NCBI GenBank assembly: GCA_973895155.1
Contig: OZ316898.1
Coordinates: forward strand, 250,751-314,750
Direction of reading: 5' to 3'
DNA from: Marsupella aquatica
Lineage: Eukaryota > Plantae > Marchantiophyta
Length of the DNA: 64,000 bases
The position numbers and the translations under genes were made by a program. The stretch's first letter is position 1. The number at the start of each line of letters is the position of its first letter. Below are positions 454 through 62,154 of the stretch, piece by piece. Under the pieces are notes generated by a model. The model searched no databases. It saw only the letters and a list, made by a program, of their open reading frames with translations, and had not been told where the DNA came from.

Positions 454-459
454 TCTTTT

Positions 460-10655: not shown

Positions 10656-10667
10656 AGGACACCATTT

Positions 10668-12611: not shown

Positions 12612-13894
12612 CATACTGCTAGCTTACCTTTGTCAATCTCAATGCCCTTTCTTGATACCTTGTGACCTAGTAGCACCCCCTCGGTTACTGCAAAAAAACA
12701 TTTATCTGGGTGTAACTTGAGACCCACCTCTCTACATCTCATGAAGGTTTTCCTGAGGTATTTAGCATGTTTCGATGCCTTCCCGAATACTGCAAAGTCA
12801 TCAATGAAGATTTCCATGAACTTTCTCAAGTAATCATGAAAAATGTTCACCATTAATCGTTGGAACATAGCTGGTGCGTTGCAGAGTCCAAACGGCATAC
12901 GATTGAAGACATAGATCCCCCATTCCGTGATGAAGGCCGTCTTGATTTGGTCTTCCTGCCGAATCCTGATTTGGTTATAACCAGAGTATCCATCCATGAA
13001 TGAATATAGTTCATGACTGGCTACCATGTCTAGTACCATATCAGTAAACGGTAAAGGAAAATGGTCTTTTAATGTTGCTTCATTCAGCTTCCTGTAATCC
13101 TGACAAACCCGGATCTTGGGTTTACCATCGGGTCCAGCTTTCTTGGGAACTATCACAATTGGAGACACCCAGTCTGAATGCAGGACTGGAGTGATGAATC
13201 CAGCTTCCACTAGTTTGTCGATTTCTATTTTGACCAGCAGGGAATACTTCGGGTTCATCCTTCGAATTGGTTGTCGAAATGATTTGGCTCCTAACATGAG
13301 ATCAATTCGATGTTCCCCTAGTGTTGGATCTACTCCCTTTAGATCTTGGTGACTCCATGCAAACACATCCTGAAATTCAATCAATAAGTCACTGATCTCT
13401 TTCTCGAGCTCAGGTGCTAGGTTTCTCCCTAAGTTCAGTTCTCTTCCCTCTCCTAAGTCGAGCTTCCGATATTGCCGTGCTTGGATCATATTAATCTGCT
13501 TCTTCAAATTCGGGTCCAGTTCGGCTTCCAGTCTCTCTAATCTCATACCTCCATAAACTGGGATTTCGGCTGGACTAGCCGAGTCGGTCCCTTCCTTGGT
13601 GTCCATAGATTGTCCCCTTACCGGTCTATTCGGTTTTGAATTAGTGGTCGGCTCCCCTTCCTGCCTTGGCTCTGGATCGTGTCTGTCCATCTCATCCACC
13701 TCTTGCTCCTGAGAGTTAGGCCGCTGTGCTCTCTCGGCTTCTAATAGGGCCTCAATTTGTTCTGCCCTCGTAATCGGCTTGTATGCCGATCCCTTGGTAT
13801 TTAATTCCTTGCCGATGATCGATGGCGTTGTGGACCCCGTCGGCTCTGCCACAATGCCTGCAGAAAATCCACTGTCCCTGCTACTGCTCCCCAC
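12612..13894 (-). pseudogene. pol: Pol of element B (linker and RT), truncated by the element A insertion
   Basis: WVSPIVIVPKK, CQDYRKLN, MDGYSGYNQ, FIDDF. Confidence 0.93.
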
Positions 13895-16794: not shown

Positions 16795-16841
16795 TACCTA
16801 CGCTTCCGTTCTAACTTCATATCTCACGGCTTAAGAAATGC

Positions 16842-16859
16842 CCCCTCCATCTAGCGCCA
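16842..16859 (-). promoter_or_regulatory. PBS of element B, tRNA-Asn type
   Basis: TGGCGCTAGATGGAGGGG, 4 nt from the LTR end; near-complement of the plant tRNA-Asn 3' end as recalled. Confidence 0.8.
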
Positions 16860-16863: not shown

Positions 16864-19828
16864 TGTGGTGCGTCCCATGGCTCCCTAAACCCAAGAAACC
16901 CCCCAGCTCAAGCCGATTCCCGCAGGTTTCGTGCTTGGCGAGGCCGTTTCCGCGGCTTAGCGGCATGGGACGCTGCTAACCTTCTACTACTACTATTAAC
17001 ATTTTACACACATATACTGGACAGATCCTTCATCGGGTCATGAGATACGTAGCCGGCCTAATATAGGCCTTCCCCTGTCTTCCCCTGTCTTCTTGTTAGG
17101 TATGTTTGGATTCCACCGCCGGAATGATCCCCAATAGGCTTGGTTAAGCCGCTAAGACCTCTCTCAGCTCGACACATCCAACTCTCACTCCCCTGCTTAC
17201 TTTCCTTCCTTCTGTTGATGTGGGCACTCTTCACACAAGTTAATGCGACACACAAATAGCAAAATGACTCATTCTGACTGAGTCATACCATGCACTTGCC
17301 ATACAAACAGTACATCTCATACACAAGTTCTACGAACTAAGCCGTGAGGCCAACTCTATTCAGCTCTTAGGCATGAGGAAACATGAATATACACAAGGGT
17401 CACTGTATGACTAACCGAGAGCTTCTCGTACTACTTGATCCCAGCCCGGCTGGTGCAAACTAAAAACTTGCTAAAGAAGAGGCCCTGAGCTCCCCGCTGC
17501 CCAGGTACTTATCCTGGTAGTGGATCCGCCATTCTTTGCATCGTAAGCCTAATCTACTTAACAGTAATCTACTTACCCGAATCTACCTATGTACAGCAAG
17601 GCAGGAGCACAAGTGTTGCTCCTACCAGTGGAACCGCAATCCCACTAAGCTAAGTGTCAGGGCCGCTCCTGGTTCTGATCCTAATCCTAAACGTGGAGAT
17701 CCGCGCCCGCCCTGCCCACTCACGCCTCCTCCCTCCACGTCCGCCCTCCCTAAAAAGAACGGCGCCCTTGCACCGTCACGACACCGGTGGTGGATCCTTA
17801 ATGGATGCCCCCAACGCTTCCTCCTCAGCCACTGCCGTAGGTTCATTCTCTGACAGATTACCTGCCCTTGACTGAGTCAACTCTCCATCGGCCTGACTGG
17901 GTCCACCTTCGGCTTCAGTCTCGACACCGGCCTCGGCAATACCCACGGCTTCGGCCTCAGTCACTCCCTCGGCTTCGGCTTCAGCCACTCCCTCGGCTTC
18001 GGCCTCCCCTTCCCCTAGGGTAGTTGGATCCTTAGCCGTGACCCTGTCTGGGGTCGGTGCTGGGTCTACCTCCTTGATCACCACGGCCTGTGAAGTCGTA
18101 TTACTCCTTGACCCTGAAGGTTTCCGCTTCTTCTTCGTTGGTGGCTCGGCAGCTGGTCCCTTCCCCTTCCCACTTACTTCCGGCACTGGTGCAGGTGGCG
18201 CGGCTTGTCCTTCGGCAATTACCACCCCTGGTAACTGGTTTGTCCCAACGGGAGATGGACCTACTGCAGCTAAGCATTTAAATACTGTGGCTTGTTTCTT
18301 CAGCCGCTCTGTTTGGTTGTCGGCCCGCCGCTGTAGGTTCTCCATCTTCCTCGTGATTTCCTCCAACTCCTCTTGGGTTTCATCCAGGTCCTTTAAGATC
18401 TTCTTCAATTGGTTGAGGAGGTACCCATTGTAGTCCTGGCTTGGGTCTGGCCTCTCTGCCAGATAGACCTGTGCCTTGCCGATCTCTGCCCTCGACAAGT
18501 TACAATGCATGGTCACCCGCAAGAAGTCGATCATCTCTCCTATGTGCGGGTTGGTGCAGGTGTTCCGGAAGAAGCCATTCTTCGTTGATGGCCCGGGGAA
18601 CGACTGGAACTCCTTGTCAGGCAAGGTCTTCCTGGTATCAACTTTGGTCTTATTGCCTATCGGCAAGCCAAACACTTCGGCAATTACCTTGGGAGTAAGA
18701 TAGAAATCCTTCCCATATATCCTCGTGCAATTGGTCTCGGGTTCCCATGACCCCACGAATTCTAATAGGTCTGACTCCGGTACCTCCGGCTTCAGCCATG
18801 GTAATCTTACAAAGGCCTCCAAGCCGGATCCGGCCATGAAGCCTTGGTACTTCTTGGTCTGCATGGCCGTAAAGCATGCATCCTCCTCCCGTGCAAAATG
18901 TAGTTGCACCTCCACCGGTAGGGTTGCCGCCCAGCCCTTCCAGGTGTCATCCCTGGTTGGAATGGCCTTGATGGGATCGACCTCCTCCTCTTTGGCTTCT
19001 CCCTGCCTCCTGCTCTACTGCTCGGCTGGCTTCTTTGGTGCCGCCGACCTCGTTCTTTTTGCCGGGGTGGCTTCATCGTTGACAGCCCCCTTCCTCTTCA
19101 TCTCTGCTGCCGTGGAGGTTTCTCCTAGCACCGTTGCCTGGGTCCACCTTTCCGTGCTACCCTTTAATTCCCAGTGTATGTCGTTGCAGTTCTTGATGGC
19201 CTCTCGGATGCCGACGACGCTGTCTTTGCAAAACAGAAGATCGTCGAGTTGATTGGAAGTAGGCGTCCACAGGAACTCGTCCTTGATGAGTTCGCCTCCT
19301 AAGAAAGCCGTCTTCTGCAGCTCCCACAATCGAGCGAGCTCCTACCGTTCTCGAGCTGCCCTTTCTGACTCCTCGTCCTCGTAAGTCTTGATGTACTCAG
19401 TTGCCCGTTCGAACAGGCATCCCCAGAAATGTGCCGCTTGATTGACGTTGCTCATACCCTCCTTAGGTCGATCGTCGGTATCTATTCTCTCCCCGAGTGC
19501 TTGCCTAAGCAGCTGACAGTAGTTGGCCTCCCGTAGTCGTCTGCCTAGTTCGTGCTCGCAAATGAGCCACCATCTCCTGCAAGCGCTCCTTACCCCTCTC
19601 CTCTGCCGGTCCTTCTTCCCGTTGATCCTTCCTAGCCGCCGATGCTTAACGCGCCCTAACCCTAATCGGGTTTTCACCCTTAGCCTTACCTCCGGCCTCT
19701 GCTCGGGTTCCATGGTTGCCCCTAATTGTTTATATTTTCCTTGTTTTGTCACTATACTAAGGTGTTCCTAGGGTGCCTTCCTGCTTTACCCACTTAACCG
19801 GCCGAGTGATTCCTGTCTAGGCATCACA
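16864..19828 (-). repeat. 5' LTR of element B (2965 bp, internally deleted copy of a ~4.6-kb coding LTR)
   Basis: Termini TGTGATGC...GCACCACA are the same as solo LTR 56887-61312; adjacent to the PBS. Confidence 0.92.
17776..19713 (-). pseudogene. LTR-encoded accessory ORF (B copy) with point stops and an in-frame internal deletion
   Basis: ORF pieces 19342-19752, 19015-19329 and 17776-18915 share one frame and match 57002-60396. Confidence 0.85.
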
Positions 19829-22648: not shown

Positions 22649-22688
22649 GTGTGTTTGTGGGGACGCTGCACACTTAAGTAGGGGGCTA

Positions 22689-41000: not shown

Positions 41001-42331
41001 GTCTCCCTTACCCAAAGAGAAGACTTCTGGAGTCACAAAGATCATATGAGCAACATGCTAGACCACAAGGGCCTCAAGATTTCAGATGAGTGCACATCAA
41101 CAATTTCTTTCCCAGAAATGCGCTGAAATTTCATAAGAATTTCAAAGGAAGTACATGGGTAGGTTGTCACTACCTACTTGCTATACTTTAGCTTCTTCAA
41201 CTCCTACTACTTAACACTATGGTCCTTTCAAGCCTCAAGGCATACACTTGAGTTCTAGTACCCCTAGAACATCTACCTTAGTTCCCCTAAGGTCTCTTAG
41301 TGCTACTCCTTGATTCTCCATACTTGGACCCACACAAAGTAACTCACACCAACTTAAGTACTCCTTGCTTGGCTCCAACTCATCACAAAGTCCAAAACCA
41401 CCCCAAAGGCCAGCAAGTGACTCATCACTAAAAAAAGACCAGCCCACCTTTCAAGGGGGTCAAAGATCCTTACTTATCCTCCTAACTATCTCACTAACTC
41501 ACTTGTTTGTCTTACCTAACTAATGAGCTAGTTGGTGACCTTTTGAAAGCCTAAATCAACTCCTTGATTTCAGCCCTTCATTCAGGTCCACCTCACCTCC
41601 TGACTTGGCTGTCCTATCCCTCCAAATCAGGGACTAAGTCAGCCTCCAAAGTACAGTCATCCCTATCTACAAAATAGCTCTAAAAATAGTAGAGGGATCA
41701 ACTTCCAATGGCCCTCCAAGTTCCTCCAAAGTCTGCATGTAACTCAGGTCCTTAGGTACCCTCCATGTTGGCTTTAAGGACTCCACTCCTTAACCTCCTT
41801 ATTCCTGGACTCCAGAACCAGCCTAGGTCCCCTTGACATGAAAGAGCCCTTCTCCAGGCCTCACCCATCCGATTAGGGCCTTGCGAATGACCCAAGCATG
41901 GTACTTCCTTACCGTACTGGTTAGTGGCTTGGTAATCTGGTTGTCCTCTCTGAAATGCTTGAGGTACACCTTTGTGACGCCGCCGGTACGGCAGTTAATG
42001 AGTGATTCGGTCTAACTGCGCTCTGCACGCGCGTTAGGAGTGTCTTAAACCGCTATTATTAGCATAACGACAGTATTTAGGTAATCATTATGGGTAGGAT
42101 ATCATTAGGCAATAAGGGGGAATTCAGGTTCGGACTGGCGGCTGGTCGCTATTCGCACAACCGGGTTACGAGCGTGGAGGGGCCCCTCCCTCGGGTCCGT
42201 ATAACGAACTTAAGGAAGCGGCCACTGACACGCGCTGACTCAGACCGGCGGAGTGGCCGGCACACCACAAGCGTGAGCGGTTCAGCCTATGGGCGTCGAG
42301 GAGACGTCGTGGGATCGACAAGCCCTCAAGG

Positions 42332-42338
42332 TATAAAA
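42332..42338 (+). promoter_or_regulatory. Candidate TATA box upstream of the LTR-encoded ORF
   Basis: TATAAAA about 108 nt before ATG 42440. Confidence 0.45.
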
Positions 42339-42439
42339 GGGGAGCCAACCCTTTGTAGTGCACCAGTCCATCAGTCCACGCGCCAGCTTCGACCCCAGCT
42401 CTCTTGTTCGCTCTAAGTTGCCACTACTATCTCCTCTGA

Positions 42440-45082
42440 ATGTCGCACACGATCCTCTCCAGCTCGGCCATTCGATTCTGGACGCAGTTCCTATCTACCG
42501 GAAGGCACTTGGCCGACTCATTGAAACACGCCAACCCACGCCGATACAAAATCAAACGCGAGTACGAGCGATCCATCCGCCTAGCAGGACGACACCACTA
42601 CATCCTTAACTTTGACTACCTGTCTCAGAGCGAGCTTTACCGACCAGCAGAGGTATCCGGGTACTTCTTCAACGGAGACAAATATATCGGGTTCTGGGAA
42701 GCATTGCTTCGGCTTCCGGACGAGGTCTTCATTATCCCAGGTACGATCAACTTGCAGCGACATCACTTCGACCACATCCCTGCTCAGGTTCGGGCTATCA
42801 TCAACAGCAAGTCCAGCACTACCCGTTCGACAAGGTCGTCTGCACTCGCTTCGGAGAACTTCTACCAGCACCTACAGAGCTTCATAGGAACTCGGCCAGC
42901 AACCAACATGACCAACTCAGTTGTACCCATACCCGTACCCGTACAACCTTAGGCTCAGCTTTAGCTTCAGCTTCAGCCTCAGCCGCAGCCTAGCCAAACC
43001 CCACCACCGATCGCCCAGCCAGCACAAGTACGCTCCGTCATCAACGCTGTGGATCTTAGCGATGACGACGAGGCTACCCTACCCTTGACCAGGCGGCCCA
43101 GAGGAACAAGCGCTCAGGGGGCCGATACTATATCATCCCCACCCCCTGCTCTGACCCCAGGAGCGGCCCCGGCAGACAACATGGTGACTGTGGCCGACCC
43201 GGGCCCGTTACTAACGGCAGTAGCACTACCCAGGCCCGATCGGGAGGATGGGGAGGTGTCACCTTCCCCAAGCCAGTCACGGGGGAAGAAGAGGAAGGAA
43301 TCCGCCACTGCATCCGGGTTACCATTGGCCACGGTAGCCGTGGCCAAGGTGACGATGCACCGCATGGGGGAAAACGTTCACAAAAACATCCTCCATCCCA
43401 AGCATGCGGTGTACCTGAAGACTCAGGGATCCGAGCACCTCGCCTCCCTCCCCTGGAACACTTGCAGGTACTACGGGGAGGACATGACGGAGTTCGTCAG
43501 GAATTATGACGATGTGCGTCAAAATACTCGGCTACGGGGAAGGAGTATGTCCCTCACGGAAGAATGGCTCAGGATGATCTTTGGGTTACCCGAAGGTGAC
43601 CATCGAGTCGAATCACGGGCTCCCGGGGGCAAGGGAGCCAAGTACCAATCTTCAAGTTTTCCCTCAGAGGGAGCAGTGGACAACGGGTTTGTGATGAAAA
43701 CCTGCCTCATCCCCGAGATAGCTGAGCGACTGGAGTTCCAGAGGTACGCCCTCCACATGATGGAACCCCGGGGGGAGATCTCCGCCGCCCAGGTTATCCA
43801 GGTCGAGAACTATCGACCTAGGAGGTGGGCGTCGTACTTCGCTAAGAAATTCCATGAAGAGATGGAGCGGCGAAGGAAGACGCTGTACATTGGTGGGAAG
43901 GCGTATTTCGCTAGCCACATCGAGATCATTCTTGAGTGGTACACCCGGTTTGATCGACGAACCCTTCCCCGTGTCAACGTTACAAAGCTGGTCCCAGCTA
44001 GGTGGGTTTTCCCGGCCTTGGAGAGACGGCCCCAGCCCGAGGCCCGAAGTCCAGCGGACACGCCAGCTTCACCCACCCCACCTCCACAAGTAGCTGTAGT
44101 CGTAACCGAGGAGGTACCGGATGGGTCGGGTGTCGCAACCGTTGATGCGACCCAATAGGCCGGGCTAAGTACAGAAGTCGGTACGGCGGAGGTCTTACCC
44201 GAGCCCGGTTCTCCCAAAGACCCACCGGTGGCTATTCCGGAGAACCGGACATTGCTACAGGAGGACGCTCCAGCCCCTTCCAACGTTACGTCCCCAGGGC
44301 TGGACGTCACTGCCCCGGCCCCCGCGCGTGTGGACGTCTGCCCATGCCCAACTCCGGACAGGCACAACCTGGACCACCCGGAACTCTTCATACCGGGTAC
44401 ATTTCTGAACAGGCTTCTGGGAGATTTCTCTCATCAAATTGCCCGGGATACCGGGGAGTTCATGGCCCGGAAGGTAGCCTGTTTCTTCAATCAGGAGTTG
44501 GTTGCCGCAGTAAAGGCAGGTCGGGCCCAGTCAGAGGCCCTTCAGAGGATAGAGCGGTACCGGGTGGAGTCCGTGTACCTAAAGAACGAAGTTGCGGTTC
44601 AAGAGGCTGAGCTTCGGCAACTACGACCCAAGGTTGCAGCCGCCGATGAGTTGTTAGCAAAGGCGCACGCTCTTACCGCCCTAGCCGAACAGGCCAAAGC
44701 TGGGAATGAAGCCGAGATTACACGACTCCGGAACCAGATTGACAGTTTGAAGAATCAAACTGTCACCTGGCAAAAAGACCTGGAGGAGGCCGAGGAACGG
44801 GCCCAGCGGGACACGGCGGAGATAGCCACGCTGCAGGCCGAGGTGGCGCGGCTCCAAACCGAGGCCGAGAAGCAGGACCAGCTGGCGGGTAAACTGACAA
44901 GTGACGCCCAGCAGTTGGAGGAGGCTTGTCAGGAGGCAGCAGAGGAGAGGGATGCGGCGAGGCGAGAGAACGAATCTCTGCTGGACCAGGTCCAGCTCCT
45001 CAAGGCGGACAATGACAGGCTTCGAAGGCAGTGGGATGGCCGCTCCCATTCAGGTGGCTCTGGCAAGCGTGCCAGGCATTAG
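42440..45082 (+). pseudogene. LTR-encoded accessory ORF of element E (ancestrally about 880 aa: accessory domain plus C-terminal coiled coil)
   Basis: ORFs 42440, 43049 and 44228 share one frame, separated only by TAG codons in CAG-rich context; LPW...EFV...LT...IFGLP...NGF...C motif; heptad-rich C-terminus. Confidence 0.85.
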
Positions 45083-45990
45083 CGGCGGAGTAGGAATAGA
45101 GTAGGATTAGGACTAGCTTAGTTAGGCTCTTGGGACAGGCACCTGCCTTAGGTACAGCATCGCTGCCGTGCTGTCCAACCTGCATAGATTAGGATCTTCT
45201 AATAAGACACAGCCGTTTCCGGCCTTACTGTCAGCTTAGTTAGGACCGTAGTCAGTGAATCTTCGGCGAGAGGACACCCCGTCCCTCGGCCCTTAGTATT
45301 TAGTGCACCCCTCGGTAGAGACAGGGGGGTTTTTAGTTGCAAAGTTGGGCGTCCGCGGTATGTGCGGGGAGTCCCGACCTTTGGGAATGAAAGAGTACCA
45401 AGGGGAGGGGGTAGGACTAAGCTCGCCGGGCGAGTGCGGAGCTGGGCTCCGTTGTAGTGTGCACCCTCGGCCTTGAACCTGTTCATTCCGGGGCTGTCGG
45501 GTCAACTAAGTGTACGCATATGTTCCCTTTGTAGTAAAATCCTTTCCCATCATTTTTCTTCGTGTAAATCGAGATTGTATGCATGTGCGCGTGTATGTGT
45601 GTGGGTTTCTCGTATATGGGTGGCAGCGCCAGGCCGAACGCACTACCCGAGACGTGCACAGGGTGCAGCCTGCGGGTAAGTGGTTGCAAGCACGGGTTGA
45701 GGACTTGTATCATCGAATCCGGATCGAAGGCGGACAGCACGAAGGCTTAGAAGCCCTTAAGCCAGGGTCGATCCTGCTATCGACTAAGGTACGTTCCGGC
45801 GGCGGAACACAAACCATACCTAGGAGGTGTCCGTATTTAGCAGTATGCGCACTTAGCGCTAGTTTACGAGAATAAGGTGCATTACGTGCTTCCCTTCCTG
45901 CCCGAACCCTCAGATTTACGAGGGATGTGCCCGTCTAAGCTGAAGTCTGAGTTAAGGCCGCAGCCGATGATGTGACATAGCCTTTGTTTT

Positions 45991-46008
45991 TGGCGCTAGA
46001 TGGAGGGG
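45991..46008 (+). promoter_or_regulatory. PBS of element E, tRNA-Asn type
   Basis: TGGCGCTAGATGGAGGGG, identical to the element B PBS. Confidence 0.85.
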
Positions 46009-46101
46009 GTACTCTACATATCGTAGAGGGGAGACATGTGCGTATTCACCTAGGTAGGATACATCAGGACGTAGTACTAACCATCGCATTTATATGAGTA
46101 A

Positions 46102-49100: not shown

Positions 49101-49460
49101 ACAAATCTTTTAACCTGGGCCACGCTCTGACAGGGGAGGCTGAAAAATCCATCCAAGCTTTGCTCAAGGAATATGAAGATGTGTTTGCATGGAGTCATCA
49201 TGATTTAACAGGCGTCTCCCCCGAGTTGGGAGAACACACGATCGATCTGAACCTAGGAGCCCATGCGGTACGGCAGCGACAACGTCGCATGAACCCGAGG
49301 TACTCCATCTTAGTGAAGGAGGAAATTGATCGTCTCCTCGCCGCCGATATCATCTACCCGGTAATGGCCAGCGACTGGGTCTCTTCCATTGTCATTGTAC
49401 CAAAGAAGGGAGGTACGGATGGAAAACCTAAGATTCGTATTTGTCAGGACTACCGTAAGG
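46102..49460 (+). pseudogene. gag-PR-RT(partial) of element E, disrupted by stops, a MITE and deletions
   Basis: MPVTRS start; FKGRHGDDPDEWL; CSKCFQSGHVVQEC; VDGGAGVN; LLGRPWL; ends at CQDYRK. Confidence 0.9.
46442..46738. mobile_element. MITE, 297 bp, 15-bp TIR, 8-bp TSD TGCTAAAG
   Basis: CTCGGGGGTTTCACT...AGTGAGACCCCCGAG; removing it restores gag ATAKANGED. Confidence 0.92.
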
Positions 49461-49549
49461 AAACACCTTAGTATAGTAACAAAAATAGGGAAATATAAAC
49501 AATTAAGGGTGACTATGGAACCCAAACCGAGGCCGAAAGTAAGGACGCC

Positions 49550-50124
49550 CCCTGGGCCCTCACTCTTTGTATATTATACAATCATACCTGTGAGTCTCCC
49601 CTACACAGGTACTCCTTCTTATTAATTTTTCTCCTATAGAGATTATCCTTGTTTTTTATAAAAACCAAAAATTTCATCTTATTAAAGTATCTTCAGTGTA
49701 TTACAAAAGGGAGTTTTGGGCAATAATAATTATCCTTCATATATTACAATTTTACTCCACACACCCGGTCCATCCCCCATTGCCCTCGGGATCATCCCCA
49801 ATCCTCCCTTCAAAACTTTTCTGGCTTAGCACAACTGCCAATATTAATATTTTAATCTATGAAGGAGATATGGATACTATAAGGATAATACACGTGTACC
49901 AATTATAATTTGACACATGTACCAATAATATGATGCCACGTGTTGTTACCTATTAATTTACCCTTCCGTAAAAGTAAGAAGGATGTCATTTCAAGGGATC
50001 TTGCAAAATTACAAAGTCATTTCGATATATATGCGGAGGTTGCGGAATTGTAAGCAAATTATAAAAATGACCCTTGAACGGTTCTCACATACTCCCCGTA
50101 TTAGAAAGGAGTGGGGGCCCAGGG
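49550..50124. mobile_element. MITE, about 575 bp, AT-rich, TIR CCCTGGGCCCYCACTC, TSD AGGACGC(C/T)
   Basis: Empty site visible in copy D (GTAAGGACGCTGGGGG). Confidence 0.88.
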
Positions 50125-52598
50125 AGGACGCTGGGGGAAACACGATTAGGGTTAGGGCACGCTAAGTACCAGCGGCTACCAACGGGAAAGAAGACCCGCC
50201 AAAGGGGGGGTAAGGACCGAGCGCAAGGACTGGCGGCTCATTTGCAAACACAAGCCAAGTGGACGACTACGGGAGGCCAACTGCTGTCCGCTGCTCAGGC
50301 AAGCACTCGGGGTGGAAGCAGATACTGACAATCAACTCAAGAAGGGTATGAGCAACGTCAATCAAGCTGCTCATTTTTGGGGATGCCTGTTAGAACGGGC
50401 AACTAAGTACATTGGGACCTACAAGGACAAAGAATCAGAGAGAGCGGCTCGAGAATGGCAGGAGCTCGCTCGGCTGTGGGAGCTGCAAAAGTCTGCTTTT
50501 TAGGAGGAAAATTCATTACGGCTGAATTCTTGTGGATGCCTACTGCCGACAAACTCGACGATCTTTTGTTTTGTGAGAACAAGATAGTCGGCATCCGGGA
50601 GGCCATCAACCGCTGCAACGACATACACTGGGAGTTGAAGGGTAGCACGGAGGGGTGGACGAAGGCAACCGTGCTAGGAGAAACATCCATGGCAGCCGCT
50701 ATGAAGAGGAAAGGGAACAACAACGAAGAAGCCACCCCTGCGAAAAGAATGAGGTCGGTGGCACCCAGGAAACCAGCAGAGTAGGGAAGCAGGAGGCAGG
50801 CGGAAGCCGAAGAGGAGGAGGTTGACCCTGTCAATGCCGTTCCAACAAGAGATGACACCTGGAAAGGCTGGACGGCGACCCTCCCTGAGGAGGTGCAATT
50901 ACACTTTGCGCGGGAAGAGGATGCATGCTTTACGGCTATGCAAACTCGGAAATACCAGGGCTTCATGGCCGGATCTGGCTTGTCCAGAAGCATTCGTAAA
51001 GTTACCATGGCTGAAGCCGGAGGTGCCAGATTTAGACTTACTGGAATTCGTGGGATCATGGGAGCCCGAGACCAATTCCACAAGGGTGTATGGGAAGGAT
51101 TTCTATCTCACTCCCCGGGTGATTGCTGAAGTGTTTGGCTTGCCGATGGGCAATAAGACCAAAGTAGATACCAGGAAGACCTTGCCAGACAAGGAGTTCT
51201 GGTCGTTTCCAGGGCCATCAACAAAGAATGGCTTCTTCCAAAACACCTGCACAAACCCGCACATAAGAGAAATGATTCATTTCTTGCGGGTGACCATGCA
51301 TTGTAACTTGCCAAGGGCAGAGATCGGCAAGGCACAGGTCTATCTGGCGGAGAGGCCAGACCCAAGCCGAGACTACAACGGGTACCTCCTCAACCAACTA
51401 AAGAAGATCTTGAAGGAGGAACGACTGGTGATCGGCATGGGAAGCATGTCCCGGCTTGGTTATCACATGCCGCTGTTGTGCCGGTATGCCCGAAGTCAGA
51501 TATTCACCCCGGTATTGCCCCTGCAGGCAAGAGCACCAGAGGAGGTTCCGGAACCGAGGCCGGCAATAGAGAAACCGACCCAGCCTGATAGTCCTACAAT
51601 GGAGCAGGTGTTTAGACCGAGGAAGGAGGACTTGCCGATGCAACAACCAGGCATGCAGAATCTGCTGAAATTGCTGGAGAAGGAAAGGAGAACGGCAACG
51701 GCAACGGGACCAGTACAGAATACTGCTCCCGAAGTCGGCCTTAGCCAACTTACCAGGGAAAACCCCTTTACCGGGGCCAAGGAGAGAAGGAGGCCAAAAC
51801 ACGAGCCGGGAGTTTGAATGTATGTAGGAGCTTCAAGTCCCGAAGCCGAGGAAAAGCAGCCCAAAGCCCCTGGTCACGACAGGGAGAAGATGAGATCAAC
51901 GTGGAAGCCGGAGGAACCAGGACCCGTGATCTGTGGGGTTGTGTTCACAGCAGGACCAGGACAGCAGAGGGGGGAGCCGATAGTCCAAGCCGAGGAGGAG
52001 ACGGTAGAAGGCTCCGACAATGATGACTCTGGCTACGGGTCAGACCATCATGTTCCAGGAATAAGGACCTGTGGCAGGTTCATCCCCACTCTTCCAAGAG
52101 TAGTTCGAGGGGACCTGAGCCAACAGAGCAGCCCGGAGTCTCCCCCACCAGATGTCGCTCCCCCGAGCTTTGACGCCATAAAACAGACGGCACAAGAGTT
52201 TCAGGAACGACTCAGGGTGGAAGAAGAGGCAGCCCTGGCTAGGGAGAAGGATTTACCAGGAGGAGAATGGCCAGAGGACATCCGGCGGCTTGCAGAAAAA
52301 CGAAGCAGCCCGCCAGCCACGATAGAAGAAATTTGCAAGGCTGCTTGGGAACAAAGGCCGCGGTGGATGATGCCGATGACTTCTGCTCACTCCGCCTATG
52401 CTAAAGAACGAGCCATGGAGTACAGGGAGATGTGTGGGGAACTTGCGCTCGGCATCTTTGGGGAGGAGTTGGAGCAGGGACCTTTTTTCTAGAGGGAAAT
52501 GTTGGAGAAGCACCGATTAGAAGAAGCGGTGGCTTTGGAAAGAAGCAAGAAGGACGAGGTCATCCGTCGGCTTAGGGCAAGGGAAGCCGAGGTAGAAG

Positions 52599-52749
52599 TG
52601 TGGACCGGCTCAATATAGGGTATGTAAGGAACTTGTCAATTTTTTTGTTGTTTGTACAAGGAATAGTAAGAAAATTGTTGTAGTGTTAGCAAAGTATAAT
52701 GAGAGTCCCCATAATTGGTGTCATGAGGAGAGAGTACTCTCATTATACT
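52599..52749 (+). repeat. Truncated F-family LTR start inserted in copy C, with an adjacent deletion
   Basis: TGTGGACCGGCTCAATATAGGGTATGTAAGGAACTTGTCA resembles 22689 onward; host sequence resumes about 230 nt further along relative to copy D. Confidence 0.75.
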
Positions 52750-53901
52750 CAGAGAAGGGAAAGGGCGCTGAAGGGGGAACTCGAGGATATCCGCGGAGCC
52801 CTTGAGTAGAAGGAGGCCGAGTTAGGGAAATCCTATCAGGCAATTATCGAGCTGCGGCAGGAGCTCACATCCATGATGGCCAGCTTCAAGGCTGACCTCT
52901 ACGAGAAAGACGACCAGCTTGACCAGACTTATGCCAAGATGAATAAAATGGAGTCTGAGGTCGTTACGGAGCTCGACAAGGAGCTGAGAGCAACCCAGGA
53001 GGAGAGGGCTACCTTAAAGAAGGAATTGGAGGAAGCCCAGAAGGAGCGGGAGGAGGCGCGCAAGGACCTAGATGAATTGCAAGAGGAGTTGGAAGAAAGC
53101 ACGCGGAAGATGGAGAACTTACAACGGCGAGCCGACAACCAAATGGAGCGGCTGAAGAAACAGGCCGCAGTATTTAAGTGCTTGGCTTCCTCAGGTCCAA
53201 CTCCAATTGGGGCAACCAAGTTACCAGGAGTAGTACTGGCCGAAGGACAAGCCGAGACACTCGCACCGGTACCGGAAGTAAGTGGCAAGGGGAAGGGGCC
53301 AGCTGCCGAACCAAAGAAGAAGAAGAAGCGGAAACCTTTTGGGTCAGGGAGTAATATGGCTCCTCAAGCCGTCGTGACCAAGGAGGTAAACCCAACACCA
53401 ACCTCAGGCAGGGTCACGGCAGAGGATCCAACTGCCCTAGAAGGCGGGGATGATGAAGCCGGGGCCAGGATACTCGGTGATGAAGCCGGGGTACCGGACC
53501 CACCACTAGAACATGTCGGGGAGGCCGTGGCCGATGTTGAGGCCGAAGCCGAGGGTGGACCCAGTCAGGCCGATGGAGAGTTGACTCGATCTGGAGCAGG
53601 TAATCTGTCAGAGGATGGACCTACGGTAGTGGCTGCGGAGGAAGAGTTGGGGGCGTCCATTAAGGACTAGACACTGCTGCCATGATGGTGGTGGAGGGCC
53701 GCTCCTTTTAAGGAGGGCGGACATGGAGGGAGGAGGCGTGAGTAGGCAGGGCGGGCTCAGATCTCCAAGTTTAGAATTAGGATCAGGACCAAGGGGCGGC
53801 CCTGACACTTAGCTTAGTGGGATTACGGATCCACTGGTAAGAGCAACACTTGTGCTCCTGCCTTGCTGTACATAGGTAGATTACAGTTAGGTAGATTAGG
53901 C

Positions 53902-55669
53902 TGTAATATAGTACATTAGTTAGAAATGATAGAAAAATTATAAATTTTGAACTTTTTCTAAGTCAAAGGTGCAGTATAGCTACCTTTTGTAACCATTTAG
54001 ATCGACTGGACACTTTATCTAATACCATGCTACACCAAAGACTACTTCCTGTTCTGGATCTTGAACGACAGCGGAAGTCCTTACCTTTCTATCGGCATCA
54101 CACTCAGGATATGGATGCAATTCGAGAAGCTATTCAGACCAACACCTACACCAGAGCTCAGCAACCAGATTCCATGGCGCTACTCCAACAAGATTAGCTC
54201 TACTACGACCATAGTTAAGTCATATAGATTTACGCAATTTTAGTTAAATAGGTAAAGTAGTCAGAAAAGTCTCATACTTTTCCAGGAGATAGTCCTTACG
54301 TAGTAGAACCTACCCTGAAAATCTCAACTCAAACCTACCTTTGGCTTGAAAGTTAAAAATATTTTAGTTTTGTTGTTTTCTACTTAGACGCGAAAGCGCT
54401 AATGCGCTTATGCGCCTATGAACTTATGCGCGCATGCGCCCAGCACTTAGAAAATTTTCCGGTTTTCGTTTTCTGTAACATTTTTAACACTTTTACCTAT
54501 TTTATTGAGACACTTAGGCACCTCAAAAAAGTCTCATATTTTGTCAGCATGAAGAATATACATCAGAGACCACTTCAGCAAAGTCTCACCTTTTTATGAC
54601 TTTTAGTTTAGAAATTAAAATTTGGATAAAACCCCTATTCATTAGTTTTACCCCAAATTCCCTTTTACAATAGTTAACACCTGAAATGTCTTTTAGTTAG
54701 CTTTTCATTCCAGGAACATTTCACTGAACCTTGGGTACTTCTGTAGTATGATTTTATTATTTTACTTTTACCCTTGACCCTTGGGATTAGAAAGGGCATG
54801 TCCTTTCATTATCTTATTTCCCTTTGGTTCCTCCTACCCTACAAGTAGTTGAATTTCTGTCACTTTTAGTGTGAAGAAATTTCATGAGCGCTCAGTTGCA
54901 AGTCTGCAACTTTGTTACCTCCATTTGTAGCAAGCACTCTATGTTGTTGATGAGTACTTAATACAAAGGATTTCTTCCCCTTCCTTGTATTTGAATGATT
55001 GAGATTTCAGACCAGAGAAGTAAAACTTTGTGATTGACGAATCTTTTGAATGTGAGGAGATAGATTCCTTAATTGGTGAAGGCTATACATTCTTGAGTTC
55101 TTGATGCATATATTTTTGGCATAACATTGCTTGTGCACGAGGTGCAAAGAATGTTATCACCCAATTACTTATGACTTTAAGTTGTTGATGATGGTGCTTG
55201 ATATTTGTGACACAAAGTATCGATTGGATGCTGAAGTGATTGGTTGTTAATCTTAACTTAGTACCTCGGAAGGAAAGGTTCGGATGTGTAGACGGCACCC
55301 TAACAACCATCCCAGTAAAGTATTTCATTCCAGAAATGTTCTTACAAGTTCAATACCTTAAATCATCTCAAATGAAGTTATGTTGAGGAGTCACCTTGGT
55401 TGTTTCCTAACTCCCTCACCATACCTCAAGATTTTCATTGTGTTTTGTTAATTTTTTCCATTTGTTAATTTTATTTACAATGTTAAGTAGACATTCAAAT
55501 CTATACCTTGCTGAGCAACCATAGTAAAAGGCTCACCTTTGTGTTTTTGTTACTTAAGTCATTCAAAAGTGCTAAATCATAGAAAATCATTCCTTACATG
55601 TCTTCCATGGGAACGAATACCGAGTTTTGGATCTTAGATGTTTATTTATGTCCCTAGTGTGATACTACA
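53902..55669. mobile_element. Solo LTR, 1768 bp, non-coding, TSD TAGGC
   Basis: TGTAATA...TACTACA termini; TAGGC on both sides; empty site in copy D. Confidence 0.92.
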
Positions 55670-56886
55670 TAGGCTTACACTGCAAGGAATTAGGCGGATC
55701 CACTACTAGGATAAGTACCTAGGCAACGGGGAGTTCAGGGCCTTCTTCCTTAGCAAGTTTTTAGTGCACCAGCAGGGCTGGGATCAAGTAGTTAAAGAAG
55801 CTCTCGGTTAGTTATGTTGTGACCCTTGTGTATATTCATGTTTCCTCATACCTAAGAGATGAATAGAGTTGGCCTCACGGCTTAGTTCGCAGATCTTGTG
55901 TATGAGAAGTACTGTTTGTATGGCAAGTGCATGGTATAACTCAGTCAGAAGGAGTCATTTTGCTATTTGTGTGTCGCATTAACTTGTTTGAAGATTTCCC
56001 ACATCGACCAAGAAGGGAGTAAGCAAGGTAGTAAGAGTTGGATGTGTCAAGCTGAGAGAGGTCTTAGCGGCTTACCCAAGCCAGTTGGGGATCATTCCGG
56101 TGGCGGAATCCAAACATACCTAAAGGAAAACCGAGAGAGGAGGACAAGGGAAGGCCTAGAATAGGTCGGCTACGTATCTCATGACCCGATGAAGGATCTG
56201 TCCAGTATATATGAGTAAAATGTTAATAGTAAAAGTAGTAGAAGGAAGTTAGCAGCGTCCCATGCCGCTAAGCCGCGAAATCGGCCTTGCCAAGAGCGAA
56301 ACCTGCGGGAATCGGCTTGTGCAGAGGGGTTTCTTGGGTTTAGGGAGCCATGGGACGCACCACACCAATCTCCTCTATGGTCCAAGCCCTTGAAATGACC
56401 AGGCATCCGGTGGGGACTAAGTATGGGGAGACTAATGGGCAACAAGGCGCTAAGCTGGTGATGCACACTAAGGACTTAGACTAGTTTGGGACTTGTCGGA
56501 TCATGGGAAGGGTCAGGCTCAAGGTGGACCGTCCGGACTTTGAATTCTGAGGGCTTGAGTGAGAGATCCTCTTAGGCCCAAGACTAACAAAGTTTACTTC
56601 ATGCGCAACGGATGTTTGGCGCATGAGATACTACGTGATCTAGGTGTGGCCGCCCGGGACCCCCAAGGGACGACGAGTTCCGAGGGCCTGGGCATGAGCA
56701 TTGGGTCGGTCCGATCACAAGAGGCTAAGGCACTCCGCCTACGGATGTCTAACTAGAAAGTTGTGAGCATAACAAGCTAGTTGCATGCCCATGTGTGTAG
56801 GTTGGAATCCAGGTGGGGGGCCAAAATATGGGGACCAAATAGGTTCACGGCTGGCAGGTCTACAAAAGCATATATGAGGGGACAAG

Positions 56887-59800
56887 TGTGATGCCTAGCC
56901 AAGAATCACTCGGCCAGTTAAGTGGGTAAAGCAGGAGTGCACCCTAGAAACACCTTAGTATAGGGACAAAACAAGGAAAATATAAACAATTAGGGGCGAC
57001 TATGGAACCCGGGCCGAGGCCGGAGGTAAGGACGCTGGGGGTGAAAACAAGATTAGGGTTAGGGCGCGCTAAGCATCGGCGGCTAGGAAGGATCAACGGA
57101 AGAAAGGACCGGAAGAGGAGAGGGGTAAGGTGCGCTTGCAGGAGATGGTGGCTCATTTGCGAGCACGAACTAGGCAGACGACTACGGGAGGCCAACTACT
57201 ATTAGGTGCTTAGGCAAGCACTCGGGGAGAGAGTAGATACCGACGATCGACCTAAGGAGGGTATGAGCAACGTCAATCAAGCGGCACATTTCTGGGGATG
57301 CCTGTTCGAACGGGCAACTGAGTACATCAAGACTTACGAGGACGAAGAATCAGAAAGGGCAGCTTGAGAACGACAGGAGCTCGCTCGATTGTGGGAGCTG
57401 CAGAAGACGGCTTTCTTAGGAGGCGAACTCATCAAGGCCGAGTTCTTGTGGACTTCTACTTCCAATCAGCTCGACGATCTTCTATTTTGCGAAGACAGAA
57501 TCATCGGCATTCGAGAGGCCATCAAGAACTGCAACGACATACACTGGGAATTGAAGGGTAGCACGGAAAGGTGGACCCAGGCAACGGTGCTAGGAGAAAC
57601 CTCCACGGCAGCCGAGATGAAGAGGAAGGGAGCCGTCAACGATGAAGCCACCCCGGCAAAAAGAACGAGGTCGGCGGCACCAAAGAAGCCAGCCGAGCAG
57701 CAGAGCAGGAGGCAGGGAGAAGCCGAAGAGGAGGAGGTCGATCCCATCAATGCCATTCCAACCAGGGATGACACCTGGAAGGGCTGGGCGGCAACCCTAC
57801 CAGCGGAGGTGCAACTACATTTTGCACGGGAGGAGGATGCATGCTTTACGGCCATGCAGACCAAGAAGTACCAAGGCTTCATGGCCGGATCCGGCTTAGA
57901 GGCCTTTGTAAGATTACCATGGCTGAAGCCGAAGGTATCGGATTCAGACCTATTAGAATTCGTGGGGTCATGGGAACCCGAGACCAATTGCACGAGGATA
58001 TATGGGAAGGATTTCTATCTTACTCCCAAGGTGATTGCCGAAGTGTTTGGCTTGCCGATAGGCAATAAGACCAAAGTTGATACCAGGAAGACCTTGCCTG
58101 ACAAGGAGTTCCGGTCGTTCCCCGGGCCATCAACGAAGAATGGCTTCTTCCGGAACACCTGCACCAACCCGCACATAGGAGAGATGATCGACTTCTTGCG
58201 GGTGACCATGCATTGTAACTTGTCGAGGGCAGAGATCGGCAAGGCACAGGTCTATCTGGCAGAGAGGCCAGACCCAAGCCAGGACTACAATGGGTACCTC
58301 CTCAACCAATTGAAGAAGATCTTAAAGGAGGAGCAGCAGGTAATCGGCATGGGGAGCGTGTCGCGGCTTGGCTATCACATGCCGTTGTTGTGCCGGTATG
58401 CCAGAGGTCAGACCTTTGCCCCAGTACTTCCCCTGTAGGTAAGGGCATCCAAGGAAGCTCCAGCACCAAGGCCGGTAGCAGAGAAGCCTCAACCACCTTT
58501 TAGCCCTACGATTGAGCAGGTGTTTAGGCCAAGGAAGGAAGACTTGCCGATGCAGCAACCAAGCATACAGAATCTGCTGAAAATGCTGGAGAAGGAAAAG
58601 ACGGCACCGGCATCGGCACCGGCTTCGGCAGCAGCACCAATACAGGACACTGCCCCAGAGGTCAACCTAAGCAGAATCAGGCCAGAATCCAAGCCGGGTG
58701 TTTGAATGTACGTGGGAGTCTCAAGCTCTGAATCTGAGGCAGAATTGCCTGAAGCTCCTACCGACGAAGAGAGGGAGAAGCCGGAAGTCCAAGAAGTAGA
58801 GGAGGCAGTGGAGGACTGCAGCCATGATAACTCCGGCTATGGGTCGGACCATCACGTTCCAGGAGTAAGGACCTGTGGCCGGTTTATCCCCACACTTCCA
58901 AGGGTAGTACGAGGGGACCCCAACCAGCAGAGTAGCCCTGAGTCTCCCCCACCAGATGTTGCTCCCCCGAGCTTTGACGGCATAAAACAGACGGCGCAGG
59001 AATTTCAGGAGTGAATCAGGCAGGAAGAGGAGGCAGCCCTGGCTAGGGAAAAGGATTTGCCAGGAGGAGATTGGCCGGAGGACATCAGGCGGCTAGCCAA
59101 AAAAGGAAGCAAACCTCTAGCCACGATTGAAGAGATCCACAAGACGGTTTGGGAGTAGAGGCCGCGATGGGCGATGCCGATCACTTCTACTTATTCCACC
59201 TACGCTAAGAATAGAGCCATGGAGTATGGTGAGATGTGTGGGGAACTTGCGCTCGGCATCTTTGGGGAGGAGTTGGAGGTAGGACCCTTTTTCCATAGGG
59301 AGCAGTTGGAGAAGCACCAATTAGAAGAAGCGGTGGCTTTAGAGAGAAGCAAGAAGGACGAGGTCATCCGACGGCTTAGGAGGATGGAAGCCGAGATTGA
59401 AGATCTAAGGGCGGCCAAGAAAGCCCAAGATGAACTGCGGATTAAGCGGCATGAGCTGAACATCATGTAGGGGCAGTTGGACACAGTGCAGGCTGATAAT
59501 CAGATTATCAAGGATAAACTGACTCAGACCCAGGGAGAATTGGCCGACGCAATCAAGGACAGAGAGAAATGGAAGAAGGAGCTGAGAAACGCAGAGGAGG
59601 CCCATATAGCAGTCAACAACCGGGTCACGGCGGAGACTCAGAGAAGGGAGAGGGCACTGAAGGGAGAGCTCGAGAAAATCCGCGGAGCCCTTGAACAGAA
59701 GGAGGCCGAGTTAGGGAAATCCTATCAAGGGATTATTGCGCTACAGCAGGAGCTTGCGTCCCTGTCGGCCAGCTTCAAGGCCGACCTGCGGGAGAAGGAC

Positions 59801-61312
59801 GCCCAGCTCGACCAGACTTATGCCAAGATGAATAACATGGAGTCTGAGGTCGTAGCGGAGCTCGACAAGGAGCTAAGAGCAACCCGGGAGGAGAGGGCTA
59901 CCACCAAGAAGGAATTGGAGGAAGCCCACAGGGAATTGGAGGAAGCCAAAAACGAGCTGGAGAAGGCACGTAAGGACCTGGATGAGACCCAAGAGGAGTT
60001 GGAGGAAATCACGAGGAAGATGGAGAACCTACAGCGGCGGGCCAACAACCAAACTGAGCGGTTGAAGAAACAAGCCGCAGTATTTAAATGCTTAGCTGCA
60101 TCAGGTCCATCTCCCGTTGGGGCAAACCAGTTACCAGGGGTGGTAATTACCGAAGGACCAGCCGTATCCCAGATCCACCTCTTGAGCAGGCCGGGGAGAC
60201 AGTGGCTGAAGCCGAGGCTGAGGCCGTAGTCGAGAATGAATCCTGAGCCGATGCCGAAGCCGAGGGTGGGCCCAGTCAGGCCGATGAAAAGTTGACTCGG
60301 TCAGAGGCAGGTAATCTGTCAGAGGACGGACCAACGGCAGTGGTTGCGGAGGAAGCATTGGGGGCGTCCATTGAGGATCCACCACCGGTGTTGTGACGGT
60401 GCAAGGGCGCCGTTCCTTTTAGGAAGGGCGGACGTGGAGGTAGGAGGCGTGAGTGGGCAGGGCGGGCGCTGATCTCCAAGTTTAGGATTAGGATCAGGAC
60501 CAGGAGCGGCCCTGACACTTAGCTTAGTGGGATTGCGGTTCCACTGGTAGGAGCAACACTTGTGCTCCTGCCTTGCTGTACATAGGTAGATTCGGGCAGG
60601 TAGATTACTGTTAGGTAGATTAGGCTTACGCTGCAAAGAATTAGGCGGATCCACTACCAGGATAAGTACCTGGGCAGCGGGGAGCTCAGGGCCTCTTCTT
60701 TAGCAAGTTTTTAGTTTGCACCAGCCGGGCTGGGATCAAGTAGTAAGAGAAGCTCTCGGTTAGTCATACCGTGACCTTGTGTATATTCATGTTTCCTCAT
60801 GCCTAAGAGCTGAATAGAGTTGGCCTCACGGCTTAGTTCGCAGAGCTTGTGTATGAGATGTACTGTTTGTATGGCAAGTGCATGGTATGACTCAGTCAGA
60901 AGGAGTCATTTTGCTATTTGTGTGTCGCATTAACTTGTGTGAAGAGTGCCCACATCAACCAGAAGGAAGGAAAGTAAGCAAGGGAGTGGGAGTTGGATGT
61001 GTCAAGCTGAGAGAGGTCTTAGCGGCTTAACCAAGCCTATTGGGGATCATTCCGGCGGCGGAATCCAAACATACCTAACCAGAAGGAGAGGAAGACAAGG
61101 GAAGGCCTAGATTAGGCCGGCTACGTATCTCATGACCCGATGAAGGATCTGTCCAGTATATGTGTGTAAAAGGCTAATAGTAATAGTAGAAGGAGGTTAG
61201 CAACGTCCCATGCCGCTAAGCCGCGGAAACGGCCTCGCCAAGCGCGAAACCTGTGGGAATCGGCTTGCGCTGGGGGGTTTCTTGGGTTTAGGGAGCCATG
61301 GGACGCACCACA
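56887..61312 (+). mobile_element. Solo LTR of the B family (copy D), 4426 bp, TSD ACAAG
   Basis: TGTGATGC...GCACCACA; ACAAG at 56882-56886 and 61313-61317; same termini as the element B 5' LTR. Confidence 0.95.
57002..60396 (+). pseudogene. LTR-encoded accessory ORF (D copy; ancestrally about 1150-1200 codons: accessory domain, low-complexity linker, long coiled coil, acidic tail)
   Basis: ORFs at 57002, 57389, 58520, 58706, 59174 and 59477 are all in one frame, broken by single stops; late frameshifting deletion near 60160. Confidence 0.88.
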
Positions 61313-62154
61313 ACAAGCTAGTACGCTATTTGGACAAGCTATGTTATTTGGGCCATGAGCATGTCCGGGGGGCAGGGTGGTCGGCCAGTGACAAATAGGA
61401 AGTGGCAAAGCACGAGCTACACCCAAAGAGGGGCTGTTCTGGACAAACAATAGATGGTGGCTCTGACTTCGGCTTATGGCAAGGCCATGCGGGCCCGGGA
61501 GGTTCTATTCGCTGACATATTTACCAATGTTTAATTTGTTGAGCTTGAGTTAGGATGCTAGTCTTGGAGGGCCTAGATCCTTTAGGTTACTTATCGAGGT
61601 GTTTGGTTGCTTGTGTAGACAGTGAGGATTGTTGAGCGACAATCGTGTTAGGGAGCAAGTGCGGCTTTGTATGGGAGTGGCCATTGGGGATGCAAGGGAC
61701 ATCAAGTTGCTTGCTCAAGGAATTTCGTGGAGGCATTTGGGAACCAAGGGCACTTAGACGAGGGCGCTGGGTGGCAAGGTCCATCACTGCAAACTGTTCC
61801 CAACTGCACATATAAACCCTAAACTCCTAATCTACTAATTGGTCCAGGGTAAGTGACACAATATTGCCCATGTCACAATAGGCCGTGGAGGTGGGTTGAA
61901 AAATGATTTACAGTCCCGACAATTCAATCATTGAAAGATTGTGCACAAGTTTTCACACAAGAGACCAAAGTCATTACTTTTATTAACAAAATTGGAAAAA
62001 CAAGTTGGGAAGCTTAGAGTGAGGAAAGCTCTACCACAAAATCAGATCCTCTAAGCCTGCTAGGTATTTGTGATACACCTGAGGCGCTACAAGTTGAGAA
62101 GCTTTAACTCAACATTTGGCACAAAATCAGACTGGCCAAGTCTAAGCCTAGGCA

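Follow-up and report, generated by a model that had tools for sequence, protein, structure and literature searches.

A 64-kb window of the liverwort Marsupella aquatica genome (contig OZ316898.1, positions 250,751 to 314,750; all coordinates below count from the first base of this window) contains at 56887-61312 a unit, largely filled by a single gene, that is very probably a long terminal repeat (LTR) of a Ty3/gypsy retrotransposon and is most readily understood as a solo LTR. The protein-coding LTR is real and is a new variant of a known system, the extra open reading frame (ORF) of plant gypsy elements; the position of the ORF in the LTR sets it apart, and the lead to a VANC-like fold is new. 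On balance we favor a gypsy LTR bounded by a target-site duplication (TSD), whose conserved and now broken gene encodes a predicted DNA-binding protein of VANC/PMD fold, a likely anti-silencing factor. The window holds the ORF in both of its states, LTR-borne in units A, B, C and E and internal in a neighboring retrotransposon, element 1 (Table 1).

Identity of the unit

Inspection of the sequence gave the termini of the unit (copy A) as TGTGATG…CACCACA, flanked on either side by ACAAG. Self-comparison of the window revealed two copies besides A, three in total. Copy B begins and ends on the same bases as A and is 94-96% identical to it, with an internal deletion of 1642 nt; beyond its 3′ end stand TTTT, a 17-mer at 16859 that resembles a primer-binding site (PBS), and then the gag-pol ORF of element B, whose ORFs match Retrotrans_gag, zf-CCHC and RVT_1 in Pfam. 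Copy C is older and lacks the first 60 nt of the unit. An earlier sequence-only reading of this DNA had proposed TG…CA ends, a perfect 5-bp TSD and termini that adjoin the PBS of element B, all of which we confirmed (the TSD at 56882-56886 and 61313-61317, and both ends of A in copy B ahead of PBS and gag-pol). It had also listed B, C and D as separate copies, of which C and D are most likely one (49460-56364) split by insertions.

Given how reverse transcription and LTR-LTR recombination work, DNA that in one place runs up to a PBS and in another stands alone within one TSD is an LTR. Since the unit adjoins the PBS in copy B and stands alone within one TSD in copy A, we read it as an LTR. Comparison of the unit with itself found no terminal direct repeats of its own, and no PBS-like word or gag-pol remnant was found inside it; the own terminal repeats and internal PBS of terminal-repeat retrotransposons in miniature (TRIM) or large retrotransposon derivatives (LARD) are therefore lacking, and what it shows are the TG…CA ends, the single TSD and the 3′ end directly before PBS and gag-pol that characterize a solo LTR. 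Together with the exact end-to-end match to the stretch before the PBS of B, the matching TSD, the same layout in a second lineage of the window (E, below) and non-chromovirus LTRs of up to ~5 kb (PMC6317226), this makes it very improbable that we are dealing with some small non-autonomous element, or with the remnant of a rearrangement lying before the PBS by chance. Such an origin would accommodate the absence from the 64-kb window of a complete element with both LTRs, the truncation of B and E, and the fact that mostly coding LTRs were not found in the plant literature surveyed. It also weighs against the favored reading as a whole that no polypurine tract (PPT) was seen before the 5′ end of the LTR within the window, beyond which the 3′ part of element B lies, and that A, B and C, every copy there, are broken.

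The full length of unit A is a high-copy repeat. Contigs mapping to it numbered 14,456 and 26,362 in two public sequencing runs (X1 and X2) and 669 and 95 in two others, with depth in 30 of 30 bins of the unit in all four; parts of it were present in 10 runs from 8 studies, and at least half of its words in 2; the run that covers it best may come from the source sample itself. A contig of X1 links 61312 to the start of the PBS and so gives the junction between LTR end and PBS once more. No RNA run was among those listed with parts of unit A, and the survey has no bearing on expression. In scans for related loci or patterns, none of 55 candidates in viral contigs and none of 94 in metagenomes was confirmed, and another metagenome scan gave 0 matches.

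The DNA that flanks A (56365-56886 and 61318-61400) is itself repetitive, with many loose contig ends at 61332-61387, and one X1 contig has an LTR start joined within another copy at 57864. The 3′ non-coding ends of A and C (60621-61312 and 55670-56364) are 90% identical although synonymous divergence (dS) in the ORF is 0.57, a likeness that may reflect strong constraint on R/U5 or a mosaic origin of copy C. The insertions in C include 576 AT-rich nt with short inverted ends (49549-50124), resembling a miniature inverted-repeat transposable element, and a second AT-rich stretch of 1750 nt (53920-55669).

A conserved gene within the LTR

The frame that runs from 57002 to 60229 has 7 internal stops in 1075 codons, where base composition predicts 47, and the remaining five frames over this span have 24-54. 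The earlier reading had described six ORF fragments in one frame; the single frame holds, the fragments number eight (67, 53, 356, 88, 102, 47, 103 and 252 codons), and coding probably starts near the ATG at 57263 rather than at 57002. Its statement that most stops differ among copies was largely borne out, as five of the seven stops of A are sense codons in B or C, one (58703) is common to C and one (59468) is unaligned in both. From 57263 on, the stops of A lie at 57365, 58436, 58703, 59012, 59156 and 59468. At 58703 and 59012 most of the contig depth carries a sense codon in all four runs, and we rejected on this ground an arrangement in which the stop common to A and C would divide the frame into two ORFs. 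Compared with the other two copies, A lacks 163 nt at 60170, a deletion that shifts the frame and produces a stop at 60227; in B and C the frame continues to 60394-60396 through a basic cluster of the KKKRK type and an acidic tail.

Codon-level comparison indicated that this frame is almost certainly a real gene under purifying selection. Pairwise dN/dS (nonsynonymous over synonymous divergence) between A and C is 0.18 (bootstrap 0.14-0.23; 863 codons from 57263), and 231 of 422 differences fall at third positions. The ratio is 0.09 in the core domain and 0.09-0.29 between B and C, against 0.73-2.14 in shifted frames. On the short A-B branch it is 0.13-0.64, as expected where decay after insertion dominates. 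The first 87 codons (57002-57262) give 0.77-0.95, which makes them probably a 5′ leader and led us to reject 57002 as the start of the ORF; 57263 is the next in-frame ATG and is present in A, B and C. A TATAAA word only 21 nt upstream of the ATG at 57002 fits the leader reading. The coding part amounts to ~1100 codons. An intact ancestral ORF of 1150-1200 codons, as proposed earlier, was right as to conservation and likely ~80 codons too long, because the leader had been counted; the proposal that about three-quarters of the unit is ORF agrees with 71% for 57263-60396 and 77% for 57002-60396.

A predicted VANC/PMD-type core and a coiled coil

The protein consists of a folded core domain and a long coiled coil, the composition that the sequence-only reading had anticipated. 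Pfam matches to ATG16, Filament and similar families were dismissed as generic coiled coil, and a PDB sequence search returned only coiled-coil matches among the matches listed (60 of 72). Basic clusters are present in the LTR-borne protein. A simple window scan found no transmembrane stretch (best 19-residue hydropathy 0.82 in A, 1.13 in E and 1.48 in element 1), and the label 'env-like' therefore does not fit.

None of the four core domains of the window matched Transposase_32 (PF20167; curated cut-off 45 bits). The DUF1985 profile matched neither these four (E≤10) nor 106 relatives (E≤0.001), and the PMD profile gave no match. The 106 relatives are the representatives found at E≤0.001 by a profile of the four window domains; among the 20 looked up, the named sources were Calypogeia fissa (4) and Selaginella moellendorffii (1). 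With E between 3.5e-8 and 3e-4, five of the 106 match Transposase_32 without reaching the cut-off; to that group, the profile made from A/E-like domains aligned with an HHalign probability of 98.6% (E 9e-16). Transposase_32, which the earlier reading had suggested, is thus reached through intermediates and not directly. Another of its suggestions, PMD, failed at the profile level and returned as one cluster at 0.88 in the ESM Atlas and in the type of fold predicted. The same domain order recurs in two unbroken relatives, P0109 and P0114, of 906 and 787 aa. In Selaginella moellendorffii, P0105/P0118 (EFJ05700.1, XP_002993279.2) combine the same core with a coiled coil in an annotated lycophyte protein, which may be a transposon ORF or a domesticated gene.

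The structural model of the A core (mean predicted local distance difference test score, pLDDT, in Table 1) aligned to VANC21 in its DNA complex (9lnk_A) over 207 of 222 residues with Z 7.9, a 4.3-Å root-mean-square deviation (rmsd) and 9% identity; this chain was the only one with Z≥5 among 48,161, the next reaching 2.4. The corresponding domain of element 1 (pLDDT 92) gave the same chain, with Z 7.6, rmsd 4.2 and 203 residues aligned, the next at 2.1. With Foldseek, nothing in PDB or BFVD reached E≤0.001, and the best viral row had E 0.026 and a template-modeling (TM) score of 0.32. In the ESM Atlas, which compares sequence features, the top clusters were mostly streptophyte and 7 of 30 hits were DUF1985 at 0.90. 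Several points tell against this fold. A Z of 7.9 lies within the range typical of best matches in this search (7-8), with low identity and high rmsd, and the models of A and element 1 are not fully independent because they share alignment rows. The Atlas DUF1985 hits have 146 of 256 features in common, where members of one family usually share 170, and the A core matches no Pfam family at E≤10. We accept the fold because the methods agree, the alignment covers most of the domain and the next chain scores far lower, and consider a VANC/PMD-type core likely as a model prediction. A word-based search (residues 240-500; proteins of 591-1882 aa) confirmed a full-length close relative for 0 of 1013 candidates, which counts against the favored reading as a whole. 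This fold, lineage E and the internal homolog in element 1 are additions to what had been noted before.

LTR-borne and internal forms of the ORF

Lineage E repeats the layout of the unit with a diverged sequence. Its presumed 5′ LTR of ~4.0 kb contains one ORF followed by a TGTA-rich tail, and its PBS is as in B: a 23-mer identical to the PBS region of B stands at 45987-46009. In the core, 26% of the E protein is identical to that of A (phmmer E 4e-19), and in both proteins a linker and then the coiled coil follow the core. Lineage E is represented by one copy in the window and its 3′ end is not sharply defined, so that its status as an LTR rests on this layout, a point to be counted against it. 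An AT-rich insertion of ~270 nt (46440-46706) interrupts the gag of element E.

Reverse transcriptase (RT) phylogeny was based on 22 rows, 19 of them named hits and the others B, E and element 1; unnamed hits were left out, the tree contained no classified references from REXdb, and E fills 45% of its columns. The RTs of B and E fall together with a pair of proteins from Calypogeia fissa (support 98/96), and that of element 1 groups apart from them with Marchantia and Riccia proteins (97/94), a placement that by itself makes a liverwort host likely. The best named RT matches are liverwort, fern, pine and angiosperm proteins. The B RT is 62% identical to that of element 1, where the order is RT, RNase H, integrase; the B and E sequences stop within RT.

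Element 1 (1-12611) comprises gag, pol, an unbroken extra ORF and a 3′ LTR that, judged from PPT and TG, appears to begin at ~11222. Only the last 453 nt of its 5′ LTR lie within the window, and over these the LTRs are 99.8% identical. It is a young, intact gypsy element with an Athila-like PBS at 460, and its gag and pol share one frame that a single stop at 4723-4725 splits. The extra ORF aligns to the LTR-borne ORF with an HHalign probability of 97% (E 1e-10). It is still found (E 8e-6) when the element 1 family is left out of the profile. Two PPT-like tracts flank the ORF, 24 of 28 positions being identical; one lies 11 nt after the pol stop and the other before the 3′ LTR. In a related fragment at 22401-22690 an integrase end, the same kind of PPT tract and an LTR start follow one another directly. 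The LTR start of that element (22401-22763) recurs within copy C (52599-52746), where C lacks ~230 nt. Athila itself would have two PPTs, a point that a check of the literature did not confirm.

These arrangements suggest a route by which the ORF came to lie in the LTR. The gene would at first have occupied the customary place of an extra ORF, behind pol and ahead of the 3′ LTR, where element 1 has it. A shift of plus-strand priming to the PPT-like tract close behind pol would then bring the ORF, together with its promoter, into U3 and have both copied into the two LTRs in every round; from how reverse transcription copies LTRs, both LTRs of a complete element are expected to carry the ORF. 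We lean toward capture into U3 by such a PPT shift. Weighing against it, there is no direct nucleotide trace of the shift, as A and E show no nucleotide likeness beyond shuffles to the LTR of element 1 or, for A, to its spacer: scores for the 3′ non-coding parts of A or E against the element 1 LTR were reached by 10 and 12 of 100 shuffles, and that for the 5′ part of A against the spacer between pol and ORF in element 1 by 13 of 100. The 5′ parts of A and E likewise showed no likeness to each other beyond shuffles (94 of 100 reach).

Expression and proposed function

In the proposed organization, each LTR would consist of a TATA word, a leader, the ORF and its own poly(A) region, and within its final 0.9 kb another start site would serve for genomic RNA. 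Expression from a solo LTR is predicted on the TATA and TGTA-rich signals. The A and E non-coding ends also share a 28-nt motif with a small hairpin (score 41, reached by 0 of 100 shuffles), possibly a packaging, dimerization or priming signal. The last 0.9 kb of the LTR contains no evident second TATA-like site, which the two-promoter model needs and which speaks against it. A rather unlikely arrangement, in which the TATA at 56981 starts the genomic RNA, would leave a U3 of ~120 nt and place the ORF inside a very long R; RNA ending at the 5′ LTR poly(A) site would be the ORF mRNA, read-through would give genomic RNA, and gag-pol would be made from a spliced form. The only clear TATA words of A and E do precede the ORF, with none in the 3′ non-coding part, and a TGTA-rich stretch follows it in both. 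Such an R would require a 4.3-kb strong-stop DNA and a gag placed behind a 3-kb ORF, and the ORF of element 1, on the 3′ side behind a PPT-like tract, has a simpler path to U3.

The readings also differ as to which LTRs express the gene. That every LTR, solo LTRs included, is a self-contained anti-silencing gene whose VANC-like product protects the family in trans is a doubtful proposition. It is similarly unlikely that the gene, present in both LTRs, is active in complete elements alone and there from the 3′ LTR, by a spliced or upstream-started RNA as in sag of mouse mammary tumor virus (MMTV), with solo LTRs as dead passengers. Athila ORF2 is made from a spliced subgenomic RNA (PMC7197481) and promoters in env can express MMTV sag (PMC12789967), just 94 nt precede the TATA in A, and A is broken at at least eight places; set against this, all of A, B, C and the distant lineage E retain a TATA word ahead of the ORF.

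The protein would enter the nucleus, oligomerize by its coiled coil, bind the DNA of the element and keep host silencing off; LTR-LTR recombination would then leave one whole cassette, decaying by point changes as in A. A nuclear DNA-binding anti-silencer is favored by what is described of VANC, which removes DNA methylation and binds short motifs that recur in the non-coding DNA of the transposon encoding it (PMC5735166), which is structurally like MAIN/PMD, and which has been modeled, as has the Athila domain, as coiled-coil oligomers (PMC13547354; bioRxiv 10.1101/2024.09.27.615353). The anti-silencing role taken by itself remains tentative. From the fold alone one cannot tell whether silencing is lifted or reinforced, given that MAIN/MAIL1, of the same fold, promote silencing of transposable elements (PMC5418596), and no enriched 6-8-mer was found in the non-coding parts of A, B and E (P 0.12-1.0); both count against an anti-silencer. 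The absence of an enriched target motif, like the moderate Z, would also suit a chromatin tether or particle component (in integration targeting, nuclear import or RNA packaging), with the VANC-like fold reflecting mere common ancestry of PMD, Athila-ORF1 and VANC domains, and the function of the extra ORFs of Athila and others is given as unknown (PMC7264820, PMC11728184). We think this unlikely, as the sole match among solved structures shows an anti-silencer in complex with DNA and as the non-coding DNA of element 1 contains AGCGTC 26 times, often in inverted pairs, a number reached by 0 of 200 shuffles and a pattern described for VANC targets.

Comparison with known systems

The extra ORFs of plant elements are placed in the internal region (PMC7264820, PMC6317226), and an Athila 3′ ORF carries Transposase_32 (PMC11728184). 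The accessible literature yielded no plant LTR that holds a whole ORF; the REXdb supplements, which may list such LTRs, lay outside that search. Among the closest systems is the Athila-type eORF-3′F of non-chromoviral Ty3/gypsy elements (PF20167 / ATHILA PF03078; PMC6317226, PMC7264820, PMC11728184), which shares with the ORF of A its sense orientation, coiled coil and basic clusters and, through intermediates, distant homology of the core; element 1 has this layout. Unlike the Athila type, A matches no Pfam family directly and has its ORF between the TG and CA of the LTR, before the PBS, where solo LTRs retain it. A position inside an LTR-like unit holds for A, B, C and E, and the position between pol and 3′ LTR for element 1 only. 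The Athila PBS TGGCGCCGTTGCC, from Brassicaceae (ATHILAfinder preprint), differs from those of B and E, and element 1 matches 12 of its 13 letters. The additional, archaeal-type RNase H of Tat elements gave no Pfam match in element 1.

Ogre ORF1 is a 5′ extra ORF upstream of gag-pol. Retrosat2/RIRE3 has LTRs of more than 3 kb and an extra ORF0 likewise upstream of gag-pol (PMC3485330); as described, that ORF is additional to the LTRs, whereas the ORF of A lies upstream of the PBS within a TSD-bounded unit. A coding U3 is known from MMTV sag (whole) and nef of human immunodeficiency virus 1 (HIV-1; partial), where the ORF is also copied to both ends (PMC12789967). Those are unrelated proteins of mammalian retroviruses, and the ORF of A has ~1100 codons and takes up ~70% of the LTR.

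VANC21/DUF1985 proteins of VANDAL Mutator-like elements (PDB 9LNK; PMC5735166, PMC13547354) share with A the predicted fold (207 of 222 residues), the coiled coil and a transposon origin of the gene. A differs in that it sits in an LTR unit linked to gag-pol and not in a VANDAL, with 9% identity and no enriched LTR motif; VANC is described as dicot-specific, and the protein of A comes from a liverwort, its activity being predicted. Within PMD (PF10536), PMD-C is reported to be VANC-like and PMD-A to be encoded by gypsy elements (PMC5418596; bioRxiv 10.1101/2024.09.27.615353), a family to which the single Atlas cluster points. Unlike gypsy PMD-A and the host proteins MAIN, MAIL1 and MAIL2, our protein gave no profile match; the accessible accounts describe no PMD inside an LTR, and the PMD survey covers angiosperms.

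Other features of the window

Remains of a CACTA-type element occupy 23700-33700 on the minus strand (Transposase_21, E 8e-60; DUF4216; a weak Transposase_24), and an ORF with a BRCT domain (31853-32716, minus strand) adjoins the CACTA transposase.

Table 1. Positions in the window of the LTR unit, its copies and related features
Feature	Coordinates	Strand	Remarks
Solo LTR, copy A	56887..61312	+	4426 nt, TG…CA
Left TSD, ACAAG	56882..56886	+	
Right TSD, ACAAG	61313..61317	+	
TATAAA, predicted promoter of the LTR gene	56981..56986	+	kept in A, B, C
In-frame stretch, probable 5′ leader	57002..57262	+	dN/dS 0.77-0.95, indels in C
Broken accessory gene	57263..60396	+	ATG kept in A, B, C; terminal stop 60394-60396
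Folded core domain, VANC21/DUF1985-like predicted fold, distant Transposase_32 relative	57770..58435	+	222 aa, pLDDT 89
Long coiled-coil region	59300..60070	+	approximate limits
Four TGTA words, predicted plant poly(A) region	60780..60871	+	
28-nt motif and small hairpin	61050..61077	+	common to lineage E (45794-45822); ~190-260 nt before PBS
Copy B, 5′ LTR of gag-pol element B	16864..19828	-	ends as in A
PBS-like sequence after copy B	16843..16859	-	
gag-pol of element B (gag, zinc knuckles, RT)	12602..16797	-	interrupted by LTR of element 1
Copy C, older	49460..56364	+	83% identical, 3 insertions, 3′ end as in A
Lineage E, presumed 5′ LTR	41973..45985	+	~4.0 kb; TG start, TATAAAA 42332, ORF, PBS 45991, gag-pol
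Lineage E ORF	42440..45082	+	880 codons, one frame, 3 stops
Element 1 internal extra ORF	8082..10655	+	intact, homologous core domain
PPT-like tracts flanking the element 1 ORF	7709-7736; 11192-11219		

Implications

The extra-ORF family of plant gypsy elements gains a structural lead, VANC21, and in element 1 a candidate target motif. The origin of PMD, in gypsy elements or in host genes, has been called fully open (PMC5418596), a question to which a VANC/PMD-like fold of sequences from liverworts and Selaginella is relevant; if the fold is indeed present in retrotransposons of non-seed plants, it would favor a retrotransposon origin of MAIN/MAIL and VANC. LTRs like these would be annotated as host genes, as the matches to 'unnamed protein' entries of Calypogeia suggest. 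An ORF within the LTR means that solo LTRs keep the gene, which changes the arithmetic of host defense: if solo LTRs do make such a protein, deletion of gag-pol by LTR-LTR recombination, the usual way in which a host disarms such elements, would leave helper genes behind.

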